In this document: positions 2,924 through 64,000 of the stretch, in pieces
Numbering within the stretch: the stretch's first letter is position 1
Layout: each line of letters opens with the position of its first letter
DNA from: Alphaproteobacteria bacterium
GTDB lineage: Bacteria; Pseudomonadota; Alphaproteobacteria; Rs-D84
DNA length: 64,000 nt
NCBI GenBank assembly: GCA_029059055.1
Contig: JAIDWS010000022.1
Span: 3,433-67,432 of the forward strand
Direction: 5' to 3'
The notes under the pieces: model-generated
The model's database searches: none
Told to the model about the DNA's origin: nothing
The model's input: only the letters and a program-made list of their open reading frames with translations
Position numbers and translations under genes: made by a program

Positions 2924-3168
2924 TCAAACTTCCCTTTTGTTTATTTCATTAATGAAAAACCACCAAAAAATTTTTCAGGTGGTTGGAGGTTCGAAACTAT
3001 AAACTAGAATAGTGCTGCTTATTCGATATATTCAGCCGCCCTCCAACCCGCAATAACGGATGGAGTTTTTATCGTCACACCGGACGCTAGTTTAATGGGT
3101 TTCGACACCCACCCCGGGAACACCCCTGGGGCAAATTAAATTATATATCAATTGGGATTTATGAACAA
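2924..3168 (-). promoter_or_regulatory. promoter plus structured leader RNA, copy A
   Basis: Minus-strand promoter TTGTTC (3168-3163), 17-nt spacer, TATAAT (3145-3140). The leader has a 5' hairpin with loop GUGUU and a long-range helix ggttggagg (3047-3039) : cctccaacc (2989-2981). That helix encloses a hairpin with loop AAUAUAUCGAAUAAG. Terminator: aaccacc-loop-ggtggtt-UUUUU (about 2984-2955). Confidence 0.55.
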
Positions 3169-7847: not shown

Positions 7848-8348
7848 TTACTGATTTCCCCCTTGGGCGGCTTTCATTTTTTCCATCACAGCTTCCATCC
7901 CGCCCATTTTTTGTAACATGGCCATTTGCTGTTTCATTTTGGTATACTGTTTAATCATGTGTTCCACATCACGCACCGTGCAACCGGCGGTTTCGGCAAT
8001 GCGCGCCTTGGCATTGGCGAAAATTTTATCCGGTTGGGCACGTTCGGCCGGTGTCATGGCTTCCAGAATCTTAATCTGGGCATCGACACTGCCGTCTTTG
8101 ATTTTTTCTTTCATGGCGGCGACCGCACCGGACATCCCCGGCACCATTTTCAACAGACCGCTGAAATTGCTCATTTTTTTAATCTGTTTCAACTGGGCCA
8201 GCATGTCATTCATATCAAATTGGCCGGACATCATGCGCGCGGCGGTTTCTTTCATACCGGCGGGCATTTTTTCTTCGATTGCGGCCATATCTGCGGCATT
8301 GTCCATTTCCGGGGCGTTGCCCGCTTTCTTTTTTCCAAAACCAAACAT
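7848..8348 (-). CDS. stand-alone SRP54/Ffh M-domain-like protein
   Basis: 166 aa, Met-rich. FDMNDMLAQLKQIKKMSNFSGLLKMVPGM...ILEAMTPAERAQPDKIF...RIAETAGCTVRDVEHMIKQYTKMKQQM parallels the E. coli Ffh M domain (FDLNDFLEQLRQMKNMGG...MTMKERAKPEII...RIAAGSGMQVQDVNRLLKQF, from memory). No NG/GTPase domain lies upstream, because the uvrA stop is at 8376. Confidence 0.7.
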   Translation of the reverse strand: MFGFGKKKAGNAPEMDNAADMAAIEEKMPAGMKETAARMMSGQFDMNDMLAQLKQIKKMSNFSGLLKMVPGMSGAVAAMKEKIKDGSVDAQIKILEAMTPAERAQPDKIFANAKARIAETAGCTVRDVEHMIKQYTKMKQQMAMLQKMGGMEAVMEKMKAAQGGNQ

Positions 8349-8375
8349 ACGTCTTACTCCTTGGTGTTCACAAAC

Positions 8376-14910: not shown

Positions 14911-15865
14911 ATACCAAATGTAATAAATATTGCTTGAACAAGAATAACCGTGCAAAGCGCCGCATATGCCGGGGCAACATTTTAATGTGTCGCGCATGGG
15001 CCAATAACCGACGGCGCAGTTGCGGTGCCATGATTGATTTATCCACATTGATTTCGTTCAATTCGAAATCCACAATGCAGCGCATCAAATTAAATATCAC
15101 AGAATTCAGAAAATACCGTGGCAAAGCCCTGTTTTCATCAATGCGTTCAATTACTGTCAACAATTGGTCGACCCGCCCCAGCGGCCCTGCCCCGCGGGTC
15201 ACAGAATCACGCCAAACGCGGTGATACAGAACGACCTGGTTAACCTGGACCATCAATGGGCGCATGGCCAACACATCCAGAAACCACAATAAATCTTCAT
15301 TGATTTCGATATTTTCCGGGAACCGAATATGTTTAACCATGTCCGCACGATACAAACGACGCCATGTCCATGCCACGTTATAACAATATTTGGGCAAATC
15401 TGTAAACAGATTTTCGTACAGCAACACATTCACCGCATGCGGATTGAACACCGCCGGCAATTTGGGCAACCGAAATTCGGCATGGACAGTGGTGGTGCCA
15501 CCTTCAACAATATCGGCGTTTCGCATTGACGCCCCGTGCAACATAATTTCAAATGCCGCCGGTAACAACATGTCATCGGCGTCCAAAAACGAAATCCACT
15601 GGCCGGCCGCCATATCCATTCCCACGTTACGCGCCGCCGATACACCGCGCCGCGATTGGTATACAGATTTGAACCGTTTGTCACGCCGACAATATTTTTC
15701 AATAATCGCCCGGGAATCGTCATCACTGCCGTCATCAATAATGATACATTCCCAATCGGTCACGGTCTGGTTTAACACAGATTTCAGACAGTCATCCAGA
15801 TACCGTCCATTATTGTAATTCGGAATAATCAGGGAAATATTCGGCATCAGCTTAGATATGGGCAT
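14891..15865 (-). CDS. glycosyltransferase family 2
   Basis: ISLIIPNYNNGRYLDDCLKSVLNQTVTDWECIIIDDGSDDDS...ISFLDADD. An alternative ATG at 15847 (MPNISLIIPNYNN) would give a TGATG overlap with the upstream Cys-rich gene. Confidence 0.85.
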   Translation of the reverse strand: MPISKLMPNISLIIPNYNNGRYLDDCLKSVLNQTVTDWECIIIDDGSDDDSRAIIEKYCRRDKRFKSVYQSRRGVSAARNVGMDMAAGQWISFLDADDMLLPAAFEIMLHGASMRNADIVEGGTTTVHAEFRLPKLPAVFNPHAVNVLLYENLFTDLPKYCYNVAWTWRRLYRADMVKHIRFPENIEINEDLLWFLDVLAMRPLMVQVNQVVLYHRVWRDSVTRGAGPLGRVDQLLTVIERIDENRALPRYFLNSVIFNLMRCIVDFELNEINVDKSIMAPQLRRRLLAHARHIKMLPRHMRRFARLFLFKQYLLHLVYGHGTD

Positions 15866-16479
15866 GTATGTGAATCAAAGCATCCGCTGTTATCGCACGA
15901 TGCCGCGACATAGACCCGGCAATCCGTAATACTGCCACCCACGGCATATGTGTTACGGTACCCGCGCAACCCACTGTAAAATGGACATTCATATTGGCAT
16001 ATCGACCCATAATTATAACTGTTATAACATTGCAGATTGTCCCCGCCATGCGAACTGACATAGCGGCAAGAACACGCATTTCTGCTGGCACTGCTGTCCA
16101 ACATATATACGCGGCGACATTTTACCAAACTGCCGTATTGCGAATCACAGACTTCGTTACCGCGGTCAAATGAAAAGCAATAAATTTTGCTGCCGTTATT
16201 ACAACTGATGGGGTTATTCAGCGCCCAATAACACGGATAATCGCCATAATATTCATCCCCAGACAGACATTCACATGTACACGACATCCCGGATGTATAC
16301 CCCGGACTGGCCACACAATTTGCATATAATCCGGCGCCGCATTGTTGACTGCATGCGGACAACTGGGTGTAATTACAGGTATCTGCGATTGCATCATTGA
16401 CCTTGATAAAATAATTACACACCGAAATCAAAGCAACCAAAATACTGTGCACCAGTGCCGATTTTCTTGTAAATGACAT
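15847..16479 (-). CDS. secreted Cys-rich protein (family member 2)
   Basis: 210 aa with an N-terminal hydrophobic signal/anchor (SALVHSILVALISVCNYF) and more than 25 Cys. C-terminal family module: YECPFYSGLRGYRNTYAVGGSITDCRV...SHTCPYLS. Confidence 0.65.
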   Translation of the reverse strand: MSFTRKSALVHSILVALISVCNYFIKVNDAIADTCNYTQLSACSQQCGAGLYANCVASPGYTSGMSCTCECLSGDEYYGDYPCYWALNNPISCNNGSKIYCFSFDRGNEVCDSQYGSLVKCRRVYMLDSSASRNACSCRYVSSHGGDNLQCYNSYNYGSICQYECPFYSGLRGYRNTYAVGGSITDCRVYVAASCDNSGCFDSHTCPYLS

Positions 16480-16712: not shown

Positions 16713-16789
16713 GCGCCCATAGCTCAGCTGGATAGAGCATCGGATTTCTAATCCGCAGGTCGCAGGTTCGAATCCTGCTGGGCGTGCCA
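16713..16789 (+). tRNA. tRNA-Arg (anticodon TCT)
   Basis: gcgcccatagctcagctggatagagcatcggatttctaatccgcaggtcgcaggttcgaatcctgctgggcgtgcca. The cloverleaf can be folded by eye: a 7-bp acceptor stem with one G-U, anticodon loop tTTCTAa, T-loop GGTTCGAATCC, and an encoded CCA. Confidence 0.9.
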
Positions 16790-16832
16790 TAAATTTAAAC
16801 CGGCCATTGGTCGGTTTTAATTTTTGCTGTAC
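16771..16832. repeat. direct repeat copy 1 (tRNA-Arg 3' end plus its terminator)
   Basis: aatcctgctgggcgtgccataaatttaaaccggccattggtcggttttaatttttgctgtacg. It is repeated at 16938-16999 with 2 substitutions and a 1-nt indel. Confidence 0.85.
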
Positions 16833-16937
16833 GCCCCAGGATTTGAACCGTCACAGGTTCGACAACAAGTTGGCGTTTGCAAGCCCGCGCCGCGAACGCC
16901 GTCACGGTTGCCCCGCTGGCATCACAGATGCCAAGGG

Positions 16938-16999
16938 AATCTGCTGGGCGTGCCATAAATTTAAACCGGCCATCGGCCGGTTTTAATTTTTGCTGTACG
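16938..16999. repeat. direct repeat copy 2 (tRNA-Arg 3' end fragment plus terminator)
   Basis: aatctgctgggcgtgccataaatttaaaccggccatcggccggttttaatttttgctgtacg. There is no tRNA body in front of it. Confidence 0.85.
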
Positions 17000-17039
17000 A
17001 TCCACAAACAAAAACCGCCGCGATTTGCGGCGGTTCTGG

Positions 17040-25757: not shown

Positions 25758-25764
25758 GATGCCA

Positions 25765-26658
25765 GTTGCAGATTGCTTTCCTAATCAATTTTGATACAAT
25801 TCGGAGGAACCGAATGCGGCAACAATTGGAGTTGTAGATTGCTTTCCTAATCAGTTTTGATACAATGCAATATTGAATATAAGGGCACACTGTGGCGTTG
25901 TAGATTGCTTTCCTAATCAGTTTTGATACAATAAGTGAATGAAAAATTTACCTGTGGATTTAGTTGTAGATTGCTTTCCTAATCAGTTTTGATACAATAT
26001 AAAATTCAAACAGCACTTGCTGAATGGGGTTGTAGATTGCTTTCCTAATCAGTTTTGATACAATGCAACCTAGCAGAATACTGGGGTGTAACCAGTTGTA
26101 GATTGCTTTCCTAATCAGTTTTGATACAATTCGTCTTTGCATTTCTCTTGTGCTTCCAAGGTTGTAGATTGCTTTCCTAATCAGTTTTGATACAATGAAA
26201 AAACGTTTCTCTCTTCTCTTTTTTGTGTTGTAGATTGCTTTCCTAATCAGTTTTGATACAATTTATCCGCTGTTTCATCCCCCATCTGCGCAGTTGTAGA
26301 TTGCTTTCCTAATCAGTTTTGATACAATTCAATGAACTTTTGCTGAAAAGCGTACGCAGTTGTAGATTGCTTTCCTAATCAGTTTTGATACAATTTTTGA
26401 AAATAAATTTTATCAGGTATGGGTGTTGTAGATTGCTTTCCTAATCAGTTTTGATACAATTATGAGCATCATCAAATTGATTCGCGAGCAGTTGTAGATT
26501 GCTTTCCTAATCAGTTTTGATACAATTCAAAAACTGAATTTTTTTCAGTAATTGGAGTTGTAGATTGCTTTCCTAATCAGTTTTGATACAATTTGGTACA
26601 AACATATCAAACAACCAAAAATGTTGTAGATTGCTTTCCTAATCAGTTTTGATACAAT
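25765..26658 (+). CRISPR. CRISPR array, 14 repeats x 36 nt and 13 spacers x 30 nt (type II-C)
   Basis: The repeat GTTGTAGATTGCTTTCCTAATCAGTTTTGATACAAT starts at 25765 and every 66 nt up to 26623; I checked every unit. The first unit (25765) is degenerate (GTTGCAG...TCAATTTT). Orientation is set by complementarity to the tracrRNA anti-repeat. Confidence 0.97.
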
Positions 26659-26664
26659 ACCCAT

Positions 26665-26696
26665 AAAATAACCCGCTGAATACAGCGGGTTATTTT
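26665..26696. terminator. bidirectional terminator between the array and cas2
   Basis: aaaataacccgctgaatacagcgggttatttt. Confidence 0.7.
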
Positions 26697-26715
26697 GCAA
26701 TCTCTTAAAGAAAAA

Positions 26716-27045
26716 CTAGAACATAACAAGTTGTTTTGCCCCTATCTTTTCTTGTTTTTTCGATTCGCCAACCAGTATTTCCATATCGGCAAATTGTTTT
26801 TCTGTAACTGTCATCAGTCTAACACTGCCGCGGGGCGGAATCAAGCATTTTAGGCGGCCAGCATGCTTTTCAACCTGTGCCATTCCCTTGCAAATCCGCG
26901 AATAAACAGACAGTTGCATCATATAGTATCCGTCCTTTAACAAAGCATTCCGAAATTTAGATGCCTGTTTTCTATCTTGTTTTGTTAGTGTTGGTAAATC
27001 AAAAAATACTATCATTCTCATAAATCGTTCCCCATATTGCGCCAT
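26716..27045 (-). CDS. cas2: CRISPR-associated endoribonuclease Cas2
   Basis: 109 aa: MRMIVFFDLPTLTKQDRKQASKFRNALLKDGYYMMQLSVYSRI. Its ATG overlaps the cas1 stop (TAATG). Confidence 0.9.
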   Translation of the reverse strand: MAQYGERFMRMIVFFDLPTLTKQDRKQASKFRNALLKDGYYMMQLSVYSRICKGMAQVEKHAGRLKCLIPPRGSVRLMTVTEKQFADMEILVGESKKQEKIGAKQLVMF

Positions 27046-27950
27046 TACTCATAATCCCCCATAACCAACATAGAAGATTCAAAAACCGGTAAATTTAATA
27101 AACGACAATCCTTTTGCCTGAATGCCTTGGCCAATGATGCGGACATCATTTCTGCACATTTAAGCAGGGATATTGCTTCGCCATCCATATTTGCATTACA
27201 CAACAATACTGATATTAGTTTATTTTTTAATTCTGGTGTTAAATCCGAATAATCAGACAAATCCAACTTTGCCACACTATAATCCACAAATGGCCGCAAT
27301 GGTTCCATCATGTCATCAACCAAATTAAACTGATTTAATTGATTATCATGATGAATGCCAAAACATGGCAACAATCCAGATGCAACAATATTGCGCGCAA
27401 CACAACCACGCACAATGGCATATCCATAATTCAGCGCTTTGTTTATCACATTTGCATCATCACGGCGCGAAAAATCACCGAACAACAACCGCCAATAGAG
27501 TTGAGCCGCATAAGCTTCGCGATTATCGCTATCACCGCTTTGTACACGTTTTGCAATTTCGCCCAGCGCATTTTGCCTTCCCAGCGCATATAACACAGCA
27601 GATTGATTTAAAATTTTCTGTTGCACAACTGATTGCCATACGCGCTTTTTTAATGGTTCAGTGGCCGCGATTTGAATATGGGCCATTTCTGAATAGCGCG
27701 AGTTATCATGAAACGGAAAAAAAGTTCCCGACGGCAAATGCGACGCATCACAGGTCAACAAGACGACATCATTTGCCGCGAATTCTGACAAAACGTGCCC
27801 TGTTAATTGTACAAAGCCCGTTTCCAAAACAACGACCGACAAGTCCTCTATCGGAATCGTTGTTTTGGTGTCATCTGATTCATAAAATAATTGTTTTTGC
27901 TTGACTGATAATTTACACGGTTTCGTTAGTTGAAGGATTCGCCACCCCAT
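27045..27950 (-). CDS. cas1: CRISPR-associated endonuclease Cas1 (type II)
   Basis: 301 aa: NKALNYGYAIVRGCVARNIVASGLLPCFGIHHDNQLNQFNLVDDMMEPLRPFVD. Confidence 0.95.
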   Translation of the reverse strand: MGWRILQLTKPCKLSVKQKQLFYESDDTKTTIPIEDLSVVVLETGFVQLTGHVLSEFAANDVVLLTCDASHLPSGTFFPFHDNSRYSEMAHIQIAATEPLKKRVWQSVVQQKILNQSAVLYALGRQNALGEIAKRVQSGDSDNREAYAAQLYWRLLFGDFSRRDDANVINKALNYGYAIVRGCVARNIVASGLLPCFGIHHDNQLNQFNLVDDMMEPLRPFVDYSVAKLDLSDYSDLTPELKNKLISVLLCNANMDGEAISLLKCAEMMSASLAKAFRQKDCRLLNLPVFESSMLVMGDYE

Positions 27951-30900
27951 TTTTATTCCTTTTAGGTTGCTTCCTTCCTTTTCTTTTTTCTGATTGCGGC
28001 TTTATGGCACAGACCGGCGTCCGATGTTCACATTTTACTTCATTCACATCGCCCAACACGCCAATATGAAATTTTTGTAAGTTTTTGAATGTATTTATGT
28101 CTATTTTTTTCTGACTATCGCATTTTTCCAATTCCACCAATGTTTTTATTTTCTTTTTTTCTTCCACTCCGCCACGTTTTTGTTTTTTCTGTGCTTCTAT
28201 TTCAAAAATAATACCATTTTCACTGATTGCAATTAATTTTCCGTTTTTAATCTCAGAAACCTTATACAAAGTATTTTCAACTTTAATAATATCATCAGGC
28301 TCAAACGTATCTGTTCGAACAGAAAATCTTGCAGAATTATCTAAACTTCTAATTACTAATTGAGATTGGTTAGAGGCCGCCGTACACTTTACGACATACC
28401 CCTCATATTCTATCTCCGATTTTGTCGTAATCTTGATATAATCATCCTTGTGCAATGTCATAACGAATTCATAAGTATCGTCAATGGCAACGGGCTTTTC
28501 CGCCTTGGCTGGTTGGGGATAGAATATATCTTGGCGATTTTTATCAACTGTATCCGCAACAAATATTGGAACAACCACATACTTGCCGTCTTTTTTAAAG
28601 ATATCCATGCGGAACATATTGTCTTTATCCGCACGTCCACGTGGCAAAACCATACTACCTTTACCAGATTTTGGCGAATTTATAGTATCTTTATGCACCG
28701 AACCCGTTGCCTTGCCACGTACCGTACGCGAAACAAATACATCATCAACGGACTGCAAGACATCCGCCCGAAAACCATCCCATGGCTCTCTAACATTCTG
28801 CTTCAAGTTGTCCCACCAGGGCCGCCCTTTCTCATTACGTTTATTTTCAAACAAACCGGATACTGTTGATAAATATTGCACCATTCCTGGCGTTGCACAG
28901 GCGATAACAATGGCGTCCTGGGCATGATGCCGGTCTGATTCTGTACGCGATTTTGTCAGCCCCCACTGACCGCGTAAATAATGTGTCAATGCCCCGGCAC
29001 GCACATCAACCCGCAAATCTGGGAACGCGGTATTTAAGACTTGTTTGACATATCGTGCCGCATATGCATTGTCATGCTCATTGCGTTCACGAAAATCCTC
29101 TTCTGACGCATCAAAGTCTTTATTCAACAGATTATGCACTTTGCGGGTTCCCAACCCCACTTTGAGTGCAGATACACGCCCAGCAAAATCATCCCAACGT
29201 GCGGTATTGCCAAAATATTCATACGGTGTTTTATTGCCTTTGGCCTGATTTTCTGTATATTTGACCAAAACCTTGTTCATATATGAATTATCCAACGATC
29301 GTGAATACGGTAAAATATGGTCAATTTCGTAACTATCCAGATGGGCCAAATCAATCGCTTCGCCAGAATACATGCACTTTCCATCTTGATCACGATACAG
29401 TTTATATTTTACTACATCTTTGGCTGTGGCCTTGCGTCCCGTCAACGCTTCATACTCTGTCCGGGCACTATCATTTTTATCGCGATTTTCATTTTGTTGG
29501 CGTTCGATTTTTTTACGATCGTCAAAGTTATTCTTTAATTCGCGCCCTACTTCTAAATTCACACGGTCCGGGGTGCCGTATTTACGAACCAGCGCATTAT
29601 ACACCTTGCGAAACTGGGCAACTGTACGATTAACAACCGGGACACGCGTCCATTCTGCAATCTCTGCGACACATCCATTGTCTGCCTTTACTTCGCCAGA
29701 TATTTTGCTTTTAAAATCATATCCGGCCGCCGCACACGCCTTGTCATACGTCAGTCCACGCATCATTTCCGGCACAATTTTATACAAGGCCTGTAAAGAC
29801 AGATTTATAAACTTTGACGTAGATAGCGTCTTTAATTCGGCAATATGCTTTTCAGGCACCTTTTTTCGACGCAATTCTTTTTCGATTGCCGCATCATCTT
29901 TCTGGGTTGCAATGACCTTCATAATCCGGTCCAGCATTTGAACATCCGACATATCGGCACTATCCAAGATTTTCTTTAATTTATGCCATCCGGCCATGGA
30001 ATAAAAGGTTTGCGTTTCTTCCTTTACACCGCGAAAAGCGACATCGTGCCCTTTCCATATTTTATTACGCAGTGTCTTGTACTTAACAGTTTGGGTCTTG
30101 CGCAATAAATCCAGAATTGCAGCACGTTCTTCATCATTCACAGAACGCACGGCGCCATCGATAACCATTTTCATGTTATTTATACGGGTCAACGCCACAA
30201 ACAATTCTGCCGTCGGGGATTCTTTTGGCGCACGCAGACAATTGGGTTCCAATGTACATCCGCCGACCATTTTGCCAACCGACTGTATTGGACGTACACG
30301 AAATGCAATTTTCTTATATTGTTCGCGCAATTCTGGGGTAAGCAGTCCGTATTTCTGCTGGGCATCAAAAATCAAATCAAGTTCCCGTTCTATTTCTTCC
30401 CGCGGAATTGAGTTATCGTATACGCCATCACCATTGCGATATTTTTTCGCGCCATCGCAATTGTTTTTGTAAATCATCTGGGCCATCGTCTTATATTCAC
30501 CCATCCGTTCACGATTCCGCGCAATGGAAACCAGTACCTTTCCGGTTTCTTTATCATTTTCTTCTGCCGATTTTCGCATAGATTTATATCCGCGATGCTT
30601 TGCCATATGAATTAACACACGCGACAGTTCGCGTGATGACAATTTACGATAAAACACATCTTCTGCGCGCAACGCCCAAACATCAACGTCATCGGCCCCA
30701 ACAACAATATTTTGATTACCAAGTCCACTATTTTCCAATAATGTTCGAATTTCTTTCATACGTAACGCTTTTCTGCGCAGCGCACGACGAATTGACCGCT
30801 TCTCGCGACGCGGCGCCGCCAATGAAGAACCATCCTTAGGATTTTCCGCGACACTAAAAATACGTACACCTGACTGTTGAATTTTTCCCACAGTGGCACG

Positions 30901-30990
30901 TCCCATCTCTGGATTATTATTTTCTTTCTCTATATCAACAACCGCCCAACCGATACTGGCAATTCCCAAGTCAAAACCGAATACACGCAT
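27913..30990 (-). CDS. cas9: Cas9, compact type II-C (1025 aa)
   Basis: RuvC-I MRVFGFDLGIASIGWAVV, Arg-rich bridge helix RREKRSIRRALRRKALRMKEIR, HNH YEIDHILPYSRSLDNSYMNKVLVKYTENQAKGNKTPYEY, and RuvC-III HHAQDAIVIA. There is no csn2 or cas4 in the locus. Confidence 0.97.
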   Translation of the reverse strand: MRVFGFDLGIASIGWAVVDIEKENNNPEMGRATVGKIQQSGVRIFSVAENPKDGSSLAAPRREKRSIRRALRRKALRMKEIRTLLENSGLGNQNIVVGADDVDVWALRAEDVFYRKLSSRELSRVLIHMAKHRGYKSMRKSAEENDKETGKVLVSIARNRERMGEYKTMAQMIYKNNCDGAKKYRNGDGVYDNSIPREEIERELDLIFDAQQKYGLLTPELREQYKKIAFRVRPIQSVGKMVGGCTLEPNCLRAPKESPTAELFVALTRINNMKMVIDGAVRSVNDEERAAILDLLRKTQTVKYKTLRNKIWKGHDVAFRGVKEETQTFYSMAGWHKLKKILDSADMSDVQMLDRIMKVIATQKDDAAIEKELRRKKVPEKHIAELKTLSTSKFINLSLQALYKIVPEMMRGLTYDKACAAAGYDFKSKISGEVKADNGCVAEIAEWTRVPVVNRTVAQFRKVYNALVRKYGTPDRVNLEVGRELKNNFDDRKKIERQQNENRDKNDSARTEYEALTGRKATAKDVVKYKLYRDQDGKCMYSGEAIDLAHLDSYEIDHILPYSRSLDNSYMNKVLVKYTENQAKGNKTPYEYFGNTARWDDFAGRVSALKVGLGTRKVHNLLNKDFDASEEDFRERNEHDNAYAARYVKQVLNTAFPDLRVDVRAGALTHYLRGQWGLTKSRTESDRHHAQDAIVIACATPGMVQYLSTVSGLFENKRNEKGRPWWDNLKQNVREPWDGFRADVLQSVDDVFVSRTVRGKATGSVHKDTINSPKSGKGSMVLPRGRADKDNMFRMDIFKKDGKYVVVPIFVADTVDKNRQDIFYPQPAKAEKPVAIDDTYEFVMTLHKDDYIKITTKSEIEYEGYVVKCTAASNQSQLVIRSLDNSARFSVRTDTFEPDDIIKVENTLYKVSEIKNGKLIAISENGIIFEIEAQKKQKRGGVEEKKKIKTLVELEKCDSQKKIDINTFKNLQKFHIGVLGDVNEVKCEHRTPVCAIKPQSEKRKGRKQPKRNKNGVANPSTNETV

Positions 30991-39305: not shown

Positions 39306-39439
39306 GTTAAAATCCTGTTGTGTTTATTTCCCCATTATTTTATACTTTTTATTGAACCCACAGGGATGTGGGTTCGGGACTTAGAAAATCCCAATCATCG
39401 CGGTGGCATGCCATCGTAATCCGACCAAAATGCTGCGAT

Positions 39440-39622
39440 TTTGCGGCATATGTTACGTCCCCGACGGGTATATATCCGGCCGGGAAGCTGTTGGTTATAC
39501 AACAAGATGCCCCGGGCATCCAAAGGCCAACAGGGTCTTTCGATGATTGATTTTTCTAACTTCCCGACCACCAAGAACACTGGTGGTTTTTGTTTCATAC
39601 AAAACAAAAGGGATGAAAAATC
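39440..39622 (+). promoter_or_regulatory. structured leader RNA, diverged copy E
   Basis: Outer helix cgggaag (39481-39487) : cttcccg (39560-39566). Terminator accacca-agaacac-tggtggt-TTTT (39567-39591). The SD context aacaaaaggga is shared with copy A. The inner hairpin differs (tgttg-GUUAUA-caaca). Confidence 0.4.
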
Positions 39623-42200: not shown

Positions 42201-42476
42201 TTGCAATCATACAATTTTCACGATATAATACGCATGTCGCCGGGTGTTCCGGCGATGGGGTGTGATGACCCGTGTGATAGCGTCGGAATACTGTCATATG
42301 GCGCGCAAAATGGCGCCTGTTTTAATATTTCGATGAAAAGAAAACTCCTGAAACCCATTGGGTCAGGAGGGTTGCGAATATATTGAATAAGCACACAATT
42401 CTATCAATTGTCATCAACCTCCTGACCACCACGAAAATGGTGGTTTTTTGTTTAACAAAGCATCAGGAGATTGAAC
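42201..42476 (+). promoter_or_regulatory. promoter plus structured leader RNA, copy B
   Basis: TTGCAA (42201-06), 17 nt, TATAAT (42224-29). 5' hairpin cgccgg-GUGUU-ccggcg (42238-54). Hairpin ctcctga...tcaggag (42345-69). Outer helix 42361-70 : 42418-27. Inner hairpin loop GAAUAUAUUGAAUAA. Terminator 42425-49. SD caTCAGGAGa (42461-70). Confidence 0.6.
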
Positions 42477-42551
42477 ATGAAACAAAAATTAACGGCGATA
42501 TTGACATTGCCGATATTATTGGCATTGCCAACCGACCGCGGATACGCCGCC
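42415..42551. repeat. inverted repeat, left arm (leader 3' part plus signal-peptide codons)
   Basis: 137 bp, the reverse complement of 44058-44194, with 4 mismatches that I can see. Confidence 0.85.
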
Positions 42552-43274
42552 GGTGACGTTGGCACAACAATAAAATGCAGCAACGATGCCAGATGTACAA
42601 ACTATGTCGCGTCCACATACAGTTATGGGGGGACAAAAGAACCCACAACCACACTATGCGATACCAATACATATGGATATTGTTGGCTCTGGGGCGACCT
42701 GTGCGTATCAAACGGTTTCGGTAATGATACACCGGGTTACTGCACCCAACGCTGTGCAGAACGGGGTTACGATATCTTGGTCTATGACATGAATAACAAT
42801 TACGAATGGGGATGCGCCTGTGTTCGGGATACATCATTCCAAGAATGGCAAAAATACAGCACCAGACGTATGCAAAAATATACCCCCACATACCGCAACG
42901 ACATGACCGCTGGGAAATGCACCGTCACCGCCACCCCGACCGGCGAATATCGATGCGCGGCCGGATATTATGGCACCGCAACATCAGAATCCGCCTGTCT
43001 CGCATGTCCCACCAACGCCACATGCAGCGGGGGAACCACATTTATGTGTAATGTCGGCTATTACAGAAATGCCGCCAAAACCGGATGCACCAAATGTCCA
43101 GACAGCAAAACCGCCGGCTTGGGATGGGACGCCAATGGAAATGGGGTTGCGGCCGTGGGCGGCGGTGATGATATCAGCTGGTGCGCCATTGCATCTGGGA
43201 CCGTGTTACACGATAACACCGGAACGTTCATTGTGGACCCCGACAATGAACTGACGGATGGGTGCGAATATTAA
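42477..43274 (+). CDS. secreted Cys-rich protein (family member 4)
   Basis: ATG at 42477, 6 nt after the SD; the track's TTG at 42471 is less likely. Signal peptide MKQKLTAILTLPILLALPTDRGYAA. Repeats: YRCAAGYYGTATSESACLACPTNATCSGGTTFMCNVGYYRNAAKTGCTKCP...LTDGCEY. Confidence 0.75.
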   Translation: MKQKLTAILTLPILLALPTDRGYAAGDVGTTIKCSNDARCTNYVASTYSYGGTKEPTTTLCDTNTYGYCWLWGDLCVSNGFGNDTPGYCTQRCAERGYDILVYDMNNNYEWGCACVRDTSFQEWQKYSTRRMQKYTPTYRNDMTAGKCTVTATPTGEYRCAAGYYGTATSESACLACPTNATCSGGTTFMCNVGYYRNAAKTGCTKCPDSKTAGLGWDANGNGVAAVGGGDDISWCAIASGTVLHDNTGTFIVDPDNELTDGCEY

Positions 43275-43277
43275 CAC

Positions 43278-43301
43278 AAATCCACCCAAATGGGTGGATT
43301 T
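43278..43301. terminator. bidirectional terminator between the convergent paralogs
   Basis: aaatccacccaaatgggtggattt. Confidence 0.65.
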
Positions 43302-43313
43302 ATGATTGGTCAT

Positions 43314-44132
43314 TTAATAAGTTTGATATTCGCATCCGTCATTCGCGTCATCGGTAATGACAAATGTGCCGGTGGCGTCATGCAGCACCGTTCCCGCGGG
43401 AATACTGCACCATGACAATTCGTCCACACCACCCACGGCGGCCACGCCATTTCCATTGGCATCCCATCCCAGACCGCCCGTTTTGCTGTCTGGACATTTG
43501 GTGCATCCGGTTTTGGTGCTGTTGATATAAAATCCGTCCTTGCATGAAAATGTGGAATTATTTCCACCACGACACGTCGCGTTTAACGGGCATACGGTGC
43601 ATCCGGTGCGGTCCGATGTGGCGGTGCCATAATATCCGGCCGCACATCGATAATTATCGGTGGTGGTGGCGGTGACGGTGCATCCTGCGCCGGATGAACC
43701 GCTGGAATATGTTGGTTTATATTGCCGCATGTACCCACTGTTGCCGGCAACGGCGCGCCATTCTTGGAATGACGCGGATTGAAAACAGGCACACCCCCAT
43801 TCGTAATTGTTATTCATATCATAGACCATAACATCATAACCCGCATTTGCGCAGTTTTGGCTGCACACGTTATATGCGTCGTGGCCGGAACCATTTCCCA
43901 GACACACCCCATCCCACAACCAACAATATCCACTGCCACCAGCGGTACATGGCGCCGTTGTGGTACTCTTGTCACCAAATTTGTGATAAGATGCGCCGAC
44001 GTATTTTGTACAACTGTCCGCATACGCACATTTTTCCACGATATTCACTTCCAAACTGGCGGCGTATCCGCGGCCGGTCGGCAATGCCAATAATATTGGC
44101 AATGTCAGTATCGCCGTTAATTTTTGTTTCAT
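43314..44132 (-). CDS. secreted Cys-rich protein (family member 5)
   Basis: ATG at 44132. Its signal peptide differs from member 4 at a single residue (PTG vs PTD). Repeats: YRCAAGYYGTATSDRTGCTVCPLNATCRGGNNSTFSCKDGFYINSTKTGCTKCP...ANDGCEYQTY. Confidence 0.75.
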   Translation of the reverse strand: MKQKLTAILTLPILLALPTGRGYAASLEVNIVEKCAYADSCTKYVGASYHKFGDKSTTTAPCTAGGSGYCWLWDGVCLGNGSGHDAYNVCSQNCANAGYDVMVYDMNNNYEWGCACFQSASFQEWRAVAGNSGYMRQYKPTYSSGSSGAGCTVTATTTDNYRCAAGYYGTATSDRTGCTVCPLNATCRGGNNSTFSCKDGFYINSTKTGCTKCPDSKTGGLGWDANGNGVAAVGGVDELSWCSIPAGTVLHDATGTFVITDDANDGCEYQTY

Positions 44133-44194
44133 GTTCAATCTCCTGATGCTTTGTTAAACAAAAAACCACCATTTTCGTGGTGGTCAGGAGGTTG
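44058..44194. repeat. inverted repeat, right arm
   Basis: Reverse complement of 42415-42551. Confidence 0.85.
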
Positions 44195-44408
44195 AGAACA
44201 ATTAATGGAATTGCACTGCTTATTGAATATTCAGCAGTCCTCCTGACCCAAAAACGGGTATGTTCAGGAGTCTTCGCCGGCACATATCAAAAACGGCGCC
44301 AATCGCGCGCCATCATGGTATTCCGACGCCATTAAAGAGGTTCTCACGCCCCATCACCGGAACCCCCGGTGACATAATAATTATATGCCGACGGTGCAGT
44401 TAATGCAA
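44133..44408 (-). promoter_or_regulatory. promoter plus structured leader RNA, copy C
   Basis: Minus strand: TTGCAT (44408-03), 17 nt, TATAAT (44385-80). 5' hairpin tcaccgg-GGGUU-ccggtga. Inner hairpin actgc-UGAAUAUUCAAUAA-gcagt. Its 3' third is near-identical to copy B. Confidence 0.6.
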
Positions 44409-54531: not shown

Positions 54532-54632
54532 GTAACAATCCTGCCTTTCTATCAGATGTATTTTATCACAAAAAGGTTGAAGAAAAAAACGGTTTCTTGT
54601 AATATTGCCCCAGAAAATTTATTTTCCCACGT

Positions 54633-54718
54633 GCGGGTATGGCGGAACTGGTAGACGCGCCACTTTGAGGTGGTGGTGGGCTTTGCCCTTAGGAGTTCGA
54701 ATCTCCTTACTCGCACCA
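54633..54718 (+). tRNA. tRNA-Leu (anticodon GAG)
   Basis: gcgggtatggcggaactggtagacgcgccactttgaggtggtggtgggctttgcccttaggagttcgaatctccttactcgcacca. It has a long variable arm, anticodon loop tTGAGgt and an encoded CCA. Confidence 0.9.
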
Positions 54719-54784
54719 GATATTTTTACATTTTTTTCTGCTTGCCCCGATTTTCATAAATTTGCTAACATCCATATACAAAGG

Positions 54785-57700
54785 ATGAGAAAGATTCTGA
54801 ATTTTTTCGCCATCTGCCTTGTCCCGCTTGCATTCCAGGCGGCGCGGGCCGATGATGCCACCGATGCTGCACGCGCGGCAACGCGGCGCAATGCCGCAAC
54901 CACGGTTGTCGCCAACACATCCACCCGCCAGAAATCAACCACCGCAACAACGCCCGCCACGCCGGCTGTATCGCGTACGGCCACCACGGCAAAAACCGCC
55001 GGCACGGTTCGCGAACGTACCACCACCACATCGGCCAGCCCGCGCAGCACCACCAACGTCGTGAACGTCGAATCCCGGTCTGCCATTACGGGTACAACCG
55101 CCCCCCGGACCGGAACCACGGTCCAATCGCGGACATCTGTAACGCCGACCCGCACAGTTATCCCGGCGCAAACACGCACCGCAACGCCGGTGCGCGGCGC
55201 GACATCGACCACGACCAATATCAACCGGTCTGCCATCACGCGCAGTGCGACGCCGACGCGCACCACCACAACCACCACCACCGGGGCCCGCCGCACAACC
55301 ACCGCGGCCACCACCGCCCGCAGTGCGACCGCCACGGCGGACGCAGACGCCCGCGCGGCGATTATGAACAAAGATTACAAGACATGCCGCGAAGTTTATT
55401 ACAACTGTATGGACGAATTCTGCGCGAACAAGGACGCCCAGCTGAAACGTTGTGCGTGTTCATCCCGCATCCATGAATTTGACAGTGTGAAAAAGCGTCT
55501 GGACAATGTCGAAGAAAAAATGCTGGATTTCAGCCAACGCCTGTTGACGGTCAACATGGACAAAGAAGATGCCGAAGCGTTATTCAAAGCCACCGAAGGT
55601 GAATTGGCATTCCAACAGACCGACACATCCGCGTCCAAGAAAATTCTGGATGAAATCGCGAAAAAATTGCAAACCGGAACCGCCGATTCCCGCACAGAAC
55701 AAAATTTAAGCGCACTGTCATGGTCATTGAACACAGACGCGGCGTTTGACAACATTGATTCCATGCTGGGGGCATCCACCACCGTCAAAGAAGGAACCGC
55801 CCTGTACAGTGCCGCATTACCGGTATGCCGCGAAATGGCGATGGAAGTTTGCGACGAAGACGCATTATCTTTGGCGCAAAGCGGGTATTTAATGATGATT
55901 GAACAGGATTGCACCACCGTTGCCAAGGCATACGAAACCCAAACAGACCAGGCCCGCGAAAAAGTCCGTGAAAGCAGCGCTTTGTTGGACATGTCGCGTC
56001 TGGACATTTATCAGAAACGCAATTCTGACGACATTTTGACATGCAAGAAAAAGATGCTGGACATGTTAACCAATTCGACGGTTTGCGGCACCGATTTGGG
56101 CAAATGTCTGGATACCACGGGCCGTTACATCGACCCGTCAACGGGCGAAGCATTCCTGACCGAAAATTTGGTTGATTTGGCGAACCTGATAACCCGCCCC
56201 AGCGGGGATGAAAAATGGACCACGGCCCCGGGCAACGACCGGTTTGTCACATATCTGAATTCCAAAAAGAAATATTTGGAACCGGCCATGGAAAATTGCC
56301 AGGACATTGCCGACAGCGTCTGGGATGCGTTTATCGAAGACGCCCTGGCCCAGATTAAATTGGCCCAGGAAAGCAAATTGGAAGACATGCGCCAAAGTTG
56401 TACGGCATTGACCACACAATGTTTGTCGGATACGGCACAATCGCTGGCGGATTTTGATGCACGTGCGCTGTCTATCTTTGGGGTCCAGGCCGACAAAACC
56501 GTCAAAGAAATGTGTAAAGAGGTTAAAAATGCCTGTACGGCGTTATTGGACCAAACGGGCGACACCAATTGGACCGGCGGCATGACAGATATTGCGACCG
56601 ACACGACATACGACACCCTGTTGCGGACATGCCGCGAAGTTGGCCGAAACTGCATCATCCAGACATGCAAATCCATTTCCGGGAACTTTGGTTTGTGTGA
56701 AAACATCCAGACATCCATTAACCGTAAATCCATTATTAACCGCACGGCCTGCTGGCAAGAAGTCAATGATTGTGTTGCGGCGGCGGGCGACGACGCCATC
56801 AAGAACATCATGGAACGCCAAACCGGTTTATCTGCTGCCCGGGATACCAATATTAATGCGTTTTATAACGAATTATATGGTATGAATTGGGTCATCAGTA
56901 ACAATTTGAATAAATGCGAAGACAACCAAACCTGTATTTATGATATTTGTCAACAGTCCAATGCGTGCAACAGCCTGGTCGATACAACAACGGAATGTTT
57001 GGTATGCCGCCTGTCGGAAAAGATTTGGGGTAATTGCGAACTGGATCCGTTGACCAATCTGAAATCCCAGGAAAACCATAATAAAATCTTGGACACCAAT
57101 GGGGAAACCCTGTTGTCTTGGTTTGCCATCAACACCGGCACCACCAATGCCCAGGACAGCTGTCGCGATACATCGTGCGGCATTGGATATATCGCATCAT
57201 ATGATGGCAGTGGGAACGTTATCTGTGTGGACAAGGCCAATTATACCGACGGCGAAGAACAATTTTGCCCCTCGTCCCCCAGAATCCAGGTTTCACAGGG
57301 CCTGCAAAATTGCTGTAACAGCAATATGACTGATTTCCACGGCAATTGTTGTACCCAGAAACAGACATCGACCCTGTCTTTTAATCCCGCCAAAACATAC
57401 TTTGGCTCGGCCACAGCATCATCGCCTCGTACGCTGTGCCTGCCCAGTGCAAAATTTGTTTTAACGGTGGATAATGCCGGTTCGGCGGCATATAACATCA
57501 ATACGCATTTAACCCTGGTTTGCACGGGAAAATTGGTGGCCGATGACACCGATGCCGACAAGCGGCCCGCAGATTATCCCAACGGGAAAACAGTTCTCTG
57601 CCAAGACGGCCAGTACGTCTGGGTGAATGCCCGACAGGTTGGCAGTTATGGATATTATTTCGCACCGAATTATGGAAAAACCACCGACAATGGCCCATTA

Positions 57701-57829
57701 AACTTTTATAACAGTGGCCCCAACACCGACGATGTTTGCACATGGTCCCCAACAGACCAAAAATGGTCCGGCGCATGCATGGAATCCGGTACCCCCCTCA
57801 AATGGCAGGTTGGCACCACTGGGAATTAA
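54785..57829 (+). CDS. large secreted protein: T/R/A-rich disordered region, 'CMDEFC' module, long helical middle, Cys-rich C-terminus
   Basis: ATG at 54785 (aaaggATG); the track's start at 54605 would run through tRNA-Leu. Signal peptide MRKILNFFAICLVPLAFQAARA, about 190 aa of T/R/A-rich sequence, then CREVYYNCMDEFCANKDAQLKRCACSSRIHEFD. Confidence 0.7.
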   Translation: MRKILNFFAICLVPLAFQAARADDATDAARAATRRNAATTVVANTSTRQKSTTATTPATPAVSRTATTAKTAGTVRERTTTTSASPRSTTNVVNVESRSAITGTTAPRTGTTVQSRTSVTPTRTVIPAQTRTATPVRGATSTTTNINRSAITRSATPTRTTTTTTTGARRTTTAATTARSATATADADARAAIMNKDYKTCREVYYNCMDEFCANKDAQLKRCACSSRIHEFDSVKKRLDNVEEKMLDFSQRLLTVNMDKEDAEALFKATEGELAFQQTDTSASKKILDEIAKKLQTGTADSRTEQNLSALSWSLNTDAAFDNIDSMLGASTTVKEGTALYSAALPVCREMAMEVCDEDALSLAQSGYLMMIEQDCTTVAKAYETQTDQAREKVRESSALLDMSRLDIYQKRNSDDILTCKKKMLDMLTNSTVCGTDLGKCLDTTGRYIDPSTGEAFLTENLVDLANLITRPSGDEKWTTAPGNDRFVTYLNSKKKYLEPAMENCQDIADSVWDAFIEDALAQIKLAQESKLEDMRQSCTALTTQCLSDTAQSLADFDARALSIFGVQADKTVKEMCKEVKNACTALLDQTGDTNWTGGMTDIATDTTYDTLLRTCREVGRNCIIQTCKSISGNFGLCENIQTSINRKSIINRTACWQEVNDCVAAAGDDAIKNIMERQTGLSAARDTNINAFYNELYGMNWVISNNLNKCEDNQTCIYDICQQSNACNSLVDTTTECLVCRLSEKIWGNCELDPLTNLKSQENHNKILDTNGETLLSWFAINTGTTNAQDSCRDTSCGIGYIASYDGSGNVICVDKANYTDGEEQFCPSSPRIQVSQGLQNCCNSNMTDFHGNCCTQKQTSTLSFNPAKTYFGSATASSPRTLCLPSAKFVLTVDNAGSAAYNINTHLTLVCTGKLVADDTDADKRPADYPNGKTVLCQDGQYVWVNARQVGSYGYYFAPNYGKTTDNGPLNFYNSGPNTDDVCTWSPTDQKWSGACMESGTPLKWQVGTTGN

Positions 57830-58381: not shown

Positions 58382-58422
58382 GTTTGCTTTTACTGTGCCT
58401 TTTATTCTAATATTTGCATGAG

Positions 58423-59547
58423 ATGAGAAAAATTTTATTAATTCTTTTATCCGCTTATTTTATCCCCATCATGACACCATCCGCGCATGGTGCAACATCG
58501 GCACAAACGTGTGGTGATGCAACCAAGCAATCCGAATGTCCCGCCGGTTGTAGATGGCATACAACATCCGGATGCCTGCAGTGTACTGGGAACACATACA
58601 GTGCCAAGGGCGCCACAAATTGTACATCATGTCCAGACACCCACCCATTGGCACCAGACGGCGCGACCAGTCAGTCCGAATGTTATAAAAAATGCGCGGG
58701 CGAAACCATTGACAACGGAAAATTCAACGATGATGTAATTGCCACCTATGATAATGAATGTAAGCCATCATGCGATAGCAGTGGAAACTGCAACTTTACA
58801 TGCAGTACCACCCAAAACGATGTCTGCACATCCTTTACCCCACAGAATGCCCAATGTGTATCTGCCATTACAGCATGCACCCCCGTACATGGTAAGGAAA
58901 ACACCGGGATAATCCTAACAGTACTCGCTAACCTTCCGACAACTCAGGCATTTTGCTACGCTACATCACAAGCCTCTTGTAAAGAAGATTTCACTTTTAT
59001 AGAATTGACGAAGCAGCCATTCCCATGTTCCACCCACACACTGGGGGTATGTTATTCAAACACGGTAAATTGCAGTGATAAGTTGGGGGCACCCGACAGC
59101 AATGGAAGAATTGATGGTACCGCAGAAATAAACAACGGCAAGTATGATTATTCCAACTGCACATGGACTGTCACCAATGTGGAAATCACCAACGGTACAG
59201 GAAAAAAAACATGTAAATACAAGGGGCCGGTCCCAGATATTAGTACCACCACAAAACGGCCCACTAACGAAGCAGACTGGGGTACCTGTACCACTGAGGC
59301 AACCACTTGCAACACCGGCTTTTGCAAAGATAACACCCAATGCATCACCCCCAGAAAAGGGTACTATGGCGATCGGTATGATTGCCAGAAATGCCCCGCG
59401 GGAACGACAACTGCTGCCACCGGCGCAACCACACAATCCGACTGTATCATGACACGCGGTGCAAACGGGACAAAATTTTGCGATGGCGCCGGAAACTGTT
59501 TTACACTGGGGGGGACCGGAACAATTCCATACAATCCCACAAACTGA
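58423..59547 (+). CDS. secreted Cys-rich protein (family member 6, largest)
   Basis: Signal peptide MRKILLILLSAYFIPIMTPSAHG. Repeats: CLQCTGNTYSAKGATNCTSCPDTHPLAPDGATSQSECYKKC ... YYGDRYDCQKCPAGTTTAATGATTQSDCI. Confidence 0.72.
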   Translation: MRKILLILLSAYFIPIMTPSAHGATSAQTCGDATKQSECPAGCRWHTTSGCLQCTGNTYSAKGATNCTSCPDTHPLAPDGATSQSECYKKCAGETIDNGKFNDDVIATYDNECKPSCDSSGNCNFTCSTTQNDVCTSFTPQNAQCVSAITACTPVHGKENTGIILTVLANLPTTQAFCYATSQASCKEDFTFIELTKQPFPCSTHTLGVCYSNTVNCSDKLGAPDSNGRIDGTAEINNGKYDYSNCTWTVTNVEITNGTGKKTCKYKGPVPDISTTTKRPTNEADWGTCTTEATTCNTGFCKDNTQCITPRKGYYGDRYDCQKCPAGTTTAATGATTQSDCIMTRGANGTKFCDGAGNCFTLGGTGTIPYNPTN

Positions 59548-63872: not shown

Positions 63873-64000
63873 GCCGCCCCCATATTTATACATATAAAAA
63901 TCCGCCATATACATATAAGGCGGGTTGGAGTTGAGAACAACTATAAAACAAATTGCCTGGCTTATTGGATATTCACCAGACTCCAACCCAACACAGGTCA
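63873..64000 (-). promoter_or_regulatory. structured leader RNA, copy D (5' part beyond the window)
   Basis: Minus-strand sense ...gggttggagt-ctgg-UGAAUAUCCAAUAAG-ccag-...-actccaaccc, then terminator ccgcc-ttatatgtatat-ggcgg-AUUUUU. It is collinear with copy A. Confidence 0.5.

Follow-up and report, generated by a model that had tools for sequence, protein, structure and literature searches.

Introduction

The pbuE (ydhL) adenine riboswitch is a terminator-type ON riboswitch. The c-di-GMP-I (GEMM-I) riboswitches occur in many copies per genome, sometimes in tandem, at genes for secreted or surface proteins and for regulators, and in the ZTP riboswitch a linker whose length varies connects two subdomains, which a long-range pseudoknot locks together. 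In Rfam, the family nearest to the RNA described here is sRNA-Xcc1 (RF02221), an 88-nucleotide (nt) RNA of Xanthomonas integron cassettes (PMC2996969) that sits upstream of symE (bioRxiv 10.1101/2025.06.18.660453). Here we compare these RNAs with a family of structured leader RNAs in a 64,000-nt stretch of DNA from an Alphaproteobacteria bacterium of the GTDB lineage Rs-D84 (contig JAIDWS010000022.1, positions 3,433 to 67,432; hereafter the window). One copy, D, lies at the window's end before a gene for an XRE-family helix-turn-helix (HTH) regulator; others precede genes for secreted cysteine (Cys)-rich proteins.

On balance we favour the prediction that the family is a riboswitch-like, effector-dependent transcription attenuator. 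We also lean towards describing its members as 170-240-nt cis-acting leader RNAs, each copy being its own transcription unit with a sigma-70-type promoter, the RNA and an intrinsic terminator.

Results

A structured leader RNA of ~175 nt straddles the end of the window, whose last 128 bases make up its 3′ two-thirds. The first-pass annotation, made from the letters alone, had proposed that positions 63873-64000, read on the minus strand, carry the same leader before the XRE gene as copy A carries before a Cys-rich gene. We found the two to be collinear, with the same helices and recognized by the same covariance model, and located all the motifs that had been named: GGGTTGGAGT (63989-63980), CTGG-TGAATATCCAATAAG-CCAG (63979-63957), TTTTATAGTTG (63948-63938), ACTCCAACCC (63931-63922) and the terminator hairpin described below. 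An exact 33-mer of copy D occurs once in the window and is not expected by chance. In a window search, a 161-nt copy D query alone matches copy B at 44252-44155 (E = 3.2e-6) and copy A at 3050-2911 (E = 5e-4). A three-copy profile finds copy D at 63998-63881(-) with E = 4.9e-25, besides A at 3158-2941(-), B at 44399-44146(-) and C at 42223-42463(+, E = 2.6e-31), and weakly reaches a divergent copy, E, at 39330-39603(+, E = 3.7e-5). Covariance model R1 gives 158.9 bits for A, 130 for F (a copy beyond the window), 122 for D, 120.9 for C and 102.5 for B.

The remainder of copy D was read on the ENA contig ERZ14208469 NODE_31 (75,472 nt; L001), which encodes the 124-amino-acid (aa) XRE protein of copy D (gene 8169-8543). 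The 5′ hairpin and promoter of the other copies were sought there, beyond position 64000, as a refutation test of the annotation; both are present and copy D is complete. Its promoter has a TATAAT -10 box and its 5′ domain comprises the hairpins H1 (TGACAT/ATGTCA), H2 (GGGGCCUGAGAAACC, that is GGGG..CC with the loop UGAGAA) and H3 (CGUC-AAGU-GACG), with an upstream mimic strand, s4a (AUUCUGACC), complementary to GGGUUGGAGU. The annotation had contained neither the two pseudoknots and the alternative pairing described below nor the tandem copy F.

With H5 and H6 in the 3′ half, the leader has five hairpins. Pairs of a hand-drawn structure were counted in an unfitted MAFFT alignment of 94 non-redundant copies (A4). 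Standard pairs fill 90.8-91.2% of cells, against 75% in shuffled controls that ignore phylogeny (0 of 500 shuffles as high), and 35-48% when partners are slid by 1-3 columns. Double changes occur at 7/7 pairs of H1, 3/3 of H2, 4/4 of H3, 5/5 of H5, 2/4 of H6 and 5/7 of the terminator. In copy D, H5 (CUGG/CCAG) spans 63957..63979 around the conserved A-rich loop UGAAUAUCCAAUAAG, and H6 spans 63938..63956, with CAAU at 63955-63952 and GUUG at 63941-63938. The H5 loop is conserved as GAAUA...AAUAAG, and two copies carry a regular stem-loop inserted at its centre, which suggests an irregular A-rich internal loop and not a floppy one. Copies B and C have a 45-nt insertion in H3.

Two long-range helices complete the predicted core. 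Pseudoknot 1 (PK1) joins the H2 loop to s7, a segment of 6-8 nt between H6 and the 3′ strand of helix P1; in copy D, s7 is UUCUCA (63932..63937) and its partner UGAGAA lies past the window edge. PK1 is 93% paired in A4, with double changes at 6/6 pairs (up to 46 cells). Its strands read UCGAAAC/GUUUCGA in copy A, UGAGAAC/GUUCUCA in B, D and F, UGAUGAC/GUCAUCA in C, UUAGAAAA/UUUUCUAA in E, CUAGAAAGC/GCUUUCUAG in locus L002 and AUUAGUCU/AGACUAAU in L003. Pseudoknot 2 (PK2), first noticed in minimum free energy (MFE) folds, joins the H2-H3 linker to the H6 loop. In copy D the loop GUUUUAUA (63949-63942) is its 3′ strand and the partner UAUAAAAC is again past the edge; copy A pairs UAAACUAG/CUAGUUUA and copy E CAAUCAUCG/CGAUGAUUG.

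The PK2 segments vary in length, and we compared cognate with non-cognate complementarity using our own script, not alignment columns. The longest perfect Watson-Crick run averages 7.16 nt for cognate against 3.51 nt for non-cognate strands in PK1, and 7.44 against 3.53 nt in PK2, while the 94 copies hold 61 distinct sequences for PK1 and 89 for PK2. By this evidence the two predicted pseudoknots together tie the 5′ and 3′ halves of the leader to each other. Geometric reasoning suggests that H2 and H6 can stay closed while their loops pair elsewhere, with linkers of 1-3 nt as in H-type pseudoknots. An extension of PK1 between GGGG of H2 and CCUC of s8, the 3′ strand of P1, appears in MFE folds. 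It was rejected: three of its five pairs have 21-41 unpaired cells and there is no compensation where column 232 covaries with P1. We keep it only as a possible contact of the OFF state.

The strand s4b (GGUUGGAGG; in copy D GGGUUGGAGU, 63980..63989) has two possible partners. It can pair upstream with s4a (CUCCAACC) to form H4, whose loop varies in length, or downstream with s8 (CCUCCAACC) to form P1. The window retains only UGACC, the last 5 nt of s4a of copy D (63996..64000), and all of its s8 (ACUCCAACCC, 63922..63931), the final two C of which also open the terminator stem. H4 reaches 95.7% pairing across the 94 copies; where a copy lacks the most frequent pair, the change is usually on the s4a side and leaves a U-G wobble (4-17 cells per C-G column). 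P1 is 98.1% paired in A4 and its innermost pair covaries (GC 70, UA 11, AU 3). Both partners follow the s4b variants GGUCAGGAG (B, C, L108 and L153), GGCAGGAG (L091) and GGUUGGGG (L182). The pattern used to retrieve metagenome copies fixed s4b (GGTTGGAG) and the H5 loop, which inflates their apparent invariance; the 24 copies outside it vary more.

The last 2-4 nt of s8 (ACC) form the bottom of the terminator stem, beside the U-tract, in all copies read (A4 columns 237-240). The consensus terminator, AACCACC/GGUGGUU followed by U5-7, is 92.7% paired and has the G+C-rich stem and U-tract of an intrinsic terminator. That of copy D occupies 63896..63923 (CCGCC 63923-63919, a 12-nt loop, GGCGG 63906-63902, an A and UUUUU 63900-63896), and this CCGCC/GGCGG hairpin is probably a regulated terminator. 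ViennaRNA MFE folds of A, B, C, D, E and F all contain H4 and the full terminator. Forcing P1, even with the PK1 duplex energy added, costs 2-12 kcal/mol in these energies, which leave out pseudoknots and tertiary contacts, and in folds of transcripts ending just 5′ of s8, H4 is already present. The terminator ends 13-35 nt before the start codon. This leaves no room for a promoter, and the downstream gene can therefore be made by read-through only.

We propose the following mechanism. By default H4 would form first during transcription, leaving s8 free, and the full terminator would follow (OFF). An effector, a small molecule or a protein, would stabilize the pseudoknotted core with P1 and thereby hold ACC; the terminator stem would then stop short of the U-tract and RNA polymerase would read into the downstream gene (ON). 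The more probable of the two polarities, with the H4 fold OFF and the P1 fold ON, and the switching by an effector are inferred from these models. Structural features expected of a terminating riboswitch are present: a structured 5′ leader domain supported by covariation, a terminator that shares nucleotides with the putative sensor helix, and an alternative pairing.

The gene behind copy D runs from ATG 63872 to stop 63498 on the minus strand, with a Shine-Dalgarno sequence, GGGGG, at 63881-63877. Its 124-aa product passes the Pfam cut-offs for HTH_31 (30.0 bits; cut-off 27) and HTH_3 (28.3 bits; cut-off 23). More widely, 150 leader hits align through to the 3′ end of the model. Behind 120 of them, an open reading frame (ORF) of 45 codons or more begins on the same strand no further than ~130 nt from the U-tract, in most cases within ~35 nt. 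Among 58 non-redundant downstream products, Pfam finds HTH_31 in 19, HTH_3 in 14 and HTH_19 in 12. A small number hit Cys-rich domains (Ephrin_rec_like or TNFR-like), and most of the rest have a signal peptide and no Pfam match and are often Cys-rich.

These gene classes would fit a common signal controlling one regulon of leader-bearing genes, as the first-pass annotation had suggested. An XRE operator shared upstream of the leader promoters was sought by eye. What turned up was no more than loose ATTGCA-like palindromes near A, B and C, and at copy D an AGAAT-N10-ATTCT repeat.

Besides D, the contig carries copies A, B, C and F and the divergent E. Copies A, B, C and E end ~30 nt 5′ of the ATG of signal-peptide proteins with 12-19 Cys each. 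Copy A (2941..3145, minus strand; -10 box TATAAT at 3145-3140, leader 3131-2955) precedes a 124-aa protein with 12 Cys (ATG 2922, minus strand). Copy B (44147..44385, minus strand), in which the insertion in H3 is an extra hairpin, precedes a 272-aa protein with 19 Cys (ATG 44131, minus strand). Copy C (42224..42462, plus strand), found by both R1 and the profile, precedes a 265-aa Cys-rich paralogue (ATG 42478, plus strand) whose gene converges with that of copy B. Copy E (39345..39594, plus strand) precedes a 195-aa protein with 18 Cys (ATG 39623, plus strand). It scores 11.8 bits with R1, and we include it for its architecture (H1, H2, PK1, PK2, P1 as CGGGAAG/CUUCCCG, and terminator) and its nhmmer match.

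The paralogous genes of C and B (42478-43274 on the plus strand and 43314-44131 on the minus strand) have near-identical terminators, ribosome-binding sites and signal peptides, and differ in PK1 and PK2. The region 42224-44385 is an inverted duplication with diverged leader cores. We found no canonical leader upstream of three further loci of Cys-rich secreted proteins in the window, 15847-16479, 54605-57829 and 58414-59547 (22, 45 and 32 Cys, respectively); the element covers only part of the window's Cys-rich secreted genes.

Directly upstream of D, at L001 7694-7886 (64155-64347 if the window numbering is continued), stands copy F, a full copy in tandem with a promoter (TTGAAA-17-TAATAT) and a terminator of its own. 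After these come a second hairpin-terminator and then the promoter of D. The second terminator, ATGACGAA...TTCGTCAT-TTTTT (in the region L001 7694-7950, window-equivalent ~64090-64347), also reads as a putative 12-codon ORF, MTNKDILFVIFL. In a deduplicated table, two or more tandem leaders precede 5 of 13 distinct XRE genes and none of 27 Cys-rich secreted genes, and the L002-type XRE gene has further partial and E-type copies in its 1.4-kb upstream spacer. The F-D tandem in front of the XRE gene of the window thus represents a conserved arrangement.

Close relatives of the XRE protein are few, and its link to the leader, first seen in the window, holds beyond it: in every orthologue contig retrieved, the leader lies directly upstream of the XRE orthologue (36-69% identity), which covers five further species or strains. 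One protein with 69% identity occurs on four contigs from mouse gut and other sources (L002-L005); the others are L007 (67%), L006 (49%) and L008 (36%), the last an uncultured gut alphaproteobacterial metagenome-assembled genome (MAG). Loci of XRE homologues were also compared in 80 GTDB species representatives, almost all of them Alphaproteobacteria; the leader is present in two gut MAGs (L008 and L011) only. What the RNA tracks is therefore a gut sub-lineage rather than the XRE protein family.

JGI and ENA metagenome contigs were scanned with the pattern GGTTGGAGN{6,7}GAATATATYGAATA, which matched at least 120 stretches; their sources include human gut, rumen and termite gut. A search with nhmmer over the listed stretches and the earlier loci gave at least 167 copies, of which 136 were full length and 123 non-redundant among the matches listed; one human-gut assembly, ORMR01, holds at least six.

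Several arrangements stood out in this set. L002 (9788-9987) and L003 (9791-9986) share an identical XRE protein and identical leader promoter, H1, H3, terminator and ribosome-binding site. Their PK1, PK2, s4a, H5 and H6 are entirely different, yet complementary within each copy, which suggests a cassette-like swap of the leader core between paralogous copies. Mini-copies consisting of the 3′ domain alone (P1, H5 and H6) are interspersed among full leaders upstream of XRE genes (L007 ~480-570, L002 9225-9340, L106 230-570). Some come with a TATAAT of their own and without a clear terminator; the outline of the mini-copies is like that of sRNA-Xcc1, with no match to RF02221 at E<=1. The 1.4-kb spacer between rpmA and the XRE gene of L002 is also packed, at 8620-9620, with copies of a ~90-nt repeat (...GACTGGATTGCTTC...GCAATGACAA...GCAATCCAG), which may be an element like a miniature inverted-repeat transposable element.

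Elsewhere, the window contains a complete type II CRISPR-Cas locus (25762-30990) with cas9 (27913-30990, minus strand; 1025 aa with HNH_4, RuvC_III and Cas9_RuvC domains), cas1 (27045-27950), cas2 (26716-27045) and an array of ~14 units of 66 nt with the 36-nt repeat GTTGTAGATTGCTTTCCTAATCAGTTTTGATACAAT. A 64-nt direct repeat, 94% identical, lies at 16775-16838 and 16941-17004 and begins inside the 3′ end of a tRNA (16713-16786). Two origins are conceivable: a scar left by the integration of a small element, or duplication of the tRNA end together with a terminator.

Discussion

The reading of the leader as an attenuator has several points against it. The case is drawn entirely from sequence and computed folds. 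P1 and H4 are near-invariant in the metagenome set, partly through the retrieval pattern, and their covariation amounts to a few variant types. P1 and the terminator overlap by only 2-4 nt, and strand exchange could allow them to coexist in part. The terminator of copy D, with its 12-nt loop, was missed by a simple terminator scan that called the one of copy F. The downstream genes give no metabolic clue to the effector. Finally, no gene directly follows copy F or the mini-copies, which fits a free-standing RNA equally well.

Such an RNA, a mainly trans-acting small RNA (sRNA) of ~175 nt with the C-rich CUCCAACC and CCUCC as anti-Shine-Dalgarno seeds and a position before genes that is secondary, is the explanation we take most seriously after our own, though we hold it to be unlikely. 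Every copy has its own promoter and strong terminator, genomes carry many copies, and copy F is followed by a second terminator and not by an ORF. In L007 (~494-560), L002 (9252-9332) and L106 there are mini-copies that combine a promoter of their own with the 3′ domain alone, and sRNA-Xcc1 itself was detected as an 88-nt sRNA (PMC2996969). However, same-strand ORFs follow most leader hits closely, as described above, and the same gene classes recur behind them. The C-rich segments are paired in both predicted folds, bar one at a time, and the conserved overlap of P1 with the terminator base would have no role in a pure sRNA.

Somewhat less probable still is a constitutive structured 5′ untranslated region that does not switch and could act in RNA stability or processing, in self-cleavage as a ribozyme, or in processive antitermination by modifying RNA polymerase. 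A compact double pseudoknot with a conserved non-canonical H5 loop is also typical of ribozymes and polymerase-binding RNAs, and the fold is very stable (z = -4.44 for the 174-nt copy D RNA against dinucleotide shuffles). Yet the mutually exclusive pairings of s4a, s4b and s8, with their three-way covariation, are hard to explain without switching, and no Rfam ribozyme or antitermination family matches.

We regard as very improbable a mobile or recombining promoter-terminator cassette that is spread by gene conversion and has no specific RNA function. It would account for the many copies, for the mosaic exchange between L002 and L003 (the same XRE protein and leader flanks with different PK1, PK2, H5 and H6) and for the position of B and C on an inverted duplication. 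But compensatory changes keep ~40 base pairs across 94 diverged copies, which requires selection on RNA structure, and the flanks of the copies showed neither terminal repeats nor target duplications nor transposase genes.

Scarcely credible is a coding role as an N-terminal extension of the XRE protein from TTG 63986 (162 aa): the ORF is open from there, and the in-frame stretch is open for 141-210 nt in L002, L003 and L007, but it is closed 3 nt upstream of the XRE start in L006 and 57 nt upstream in L008, the stretch upstream of ATG 63872 shows RNA-type covariation and holds a terminator hairpin with its U-tract, and the same sequence stands before unrelated secreted proteins. The first-pass annotation had doubted the TTG start with good reason, since the public gene call (124 aa) begins at ATG 63872 and the N-termini of orthologues align there. 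A 131-aa call from ATG 63893 (P0001) was also rejected; it lacks a Shine-Dalgarno sequence and sits in the terminator tail. Leader-peptide attenuation was set aside as well, with no conserved small ORF and stop-free stretches of median 46 codons in no consistent frame. The annotated start is thereby corrected for the XRE gene and for similar genes whose ORFs run into the leader.

Returning to the attenuator, a more specific form of it is possible and is put forward tentatively: a new riboswitch class, with a double-pseudoknotted aptamer and a three-strand toggle, that senses a signalling molecule or a host- or gut-derived cue and switches on, in concert, a Cys-rich secretome and a set of XRE regulators in uncultured gut Alphaproteobacteria with reduced genomes. 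If this were true, the regulator gene would respond more sharply, through the two checkpoints that its tandem copies provide.

The family is plentiful in gut metagenomes from humans, rodents, ruminants and termites. If the attenuator reading is right, its members form an orphan class of riboswitch-like RNAs whose structure is uncommonly rich, with ~40 covarying pairs and two long-range pseudoknots. They would then mark out a regulon, made up of XRE regulators and Cys-rich secreted proteins, in an uncultured lineage about which little is known, and would offer a handle on what these gut bacteria sense. The alignment, the covariance model and the mutational predictions for s4a, s4b, s8, PK1 and PK2 make the question directly testable.

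Relation to known RNAs

At the gathering score, Rfam 15 (4227 models) finds only three tRNAs in the window, and permissive scans of each copy gave nothing beyond sub-threshold matches to sRNA-Xcc1. Our search of the literature on the motif or on related riboswitch candidates found nothing relevant. The family, apparently undescribed, is widespread and structurally elaborate and is absent from Rfam.

The sRNA-Xcc1 model scores 37.9 bits on copy A (E = 2.3e-5, 301-nt search) and 28.6 bits on copy E (E = 0.004), against a gathering score of 53. It has no match at E<=1-10 in B, C, D, F and twelve other copies, L002, L007, L102 and L106 included. The two RNAs share an outline. In sRNA-Xcc1 an outer G-rich/C-rich helix (GGCCGGGGG/CCCCCGGCC) encloses two hairpins and is followed by CACC; in the leader, P1 encloses H5 and H6 and is followed by the terminator sequence (A)CCACC. 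Both also lie upstream of a gene. However, sRNA-Xcc1 lacks the 5′ domain, so that neither PK1 nor PK2 is possible there, and its hosts and context are Gammaproteobacteria and integrons. The genes downstream of the leader encode XRE HTH or secreted proteins, with no symE found among them; attC sites and intI were not looked for. The 3′ domain of the leader may be distantly homologous to sRNA-Xcc1, and we have not filed the family under that name.

The likeness to c-di-GMP-I riboswitches is one of usage only: multiple copies, some in tandem, serve secreted proteins and regulators and not a single metabolic pathway. In sequence and structure the leader matches neither RF01051 and RF01786 nor any other Rfam riboswitch. 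Like the ZTP riboswitch, the leader consists of subdomains joined by a variable linker (H3, with the 45-nt insertion in B and C). Its helices and conserved nucleotides are unrelated to those of ZTP, and it has two long-range helices, each of which uses a hairpin loop.

The leader differs from pbuE in being ~2.5 times larger, in its two long-range pseudoknots and in having no known ligand. The overlap between P1 and the terminator is only 2-4 nt, and a dedicated upstream mimic, s4a, competes for the 5′ strand of P1. It resembles pbuE-type ON riboswitches in its predicted logic: some nucleotides of the closing helix P1 also belong to the 5′ strand of the terminator, and stabilization of P1 would be expected to permit read-through.

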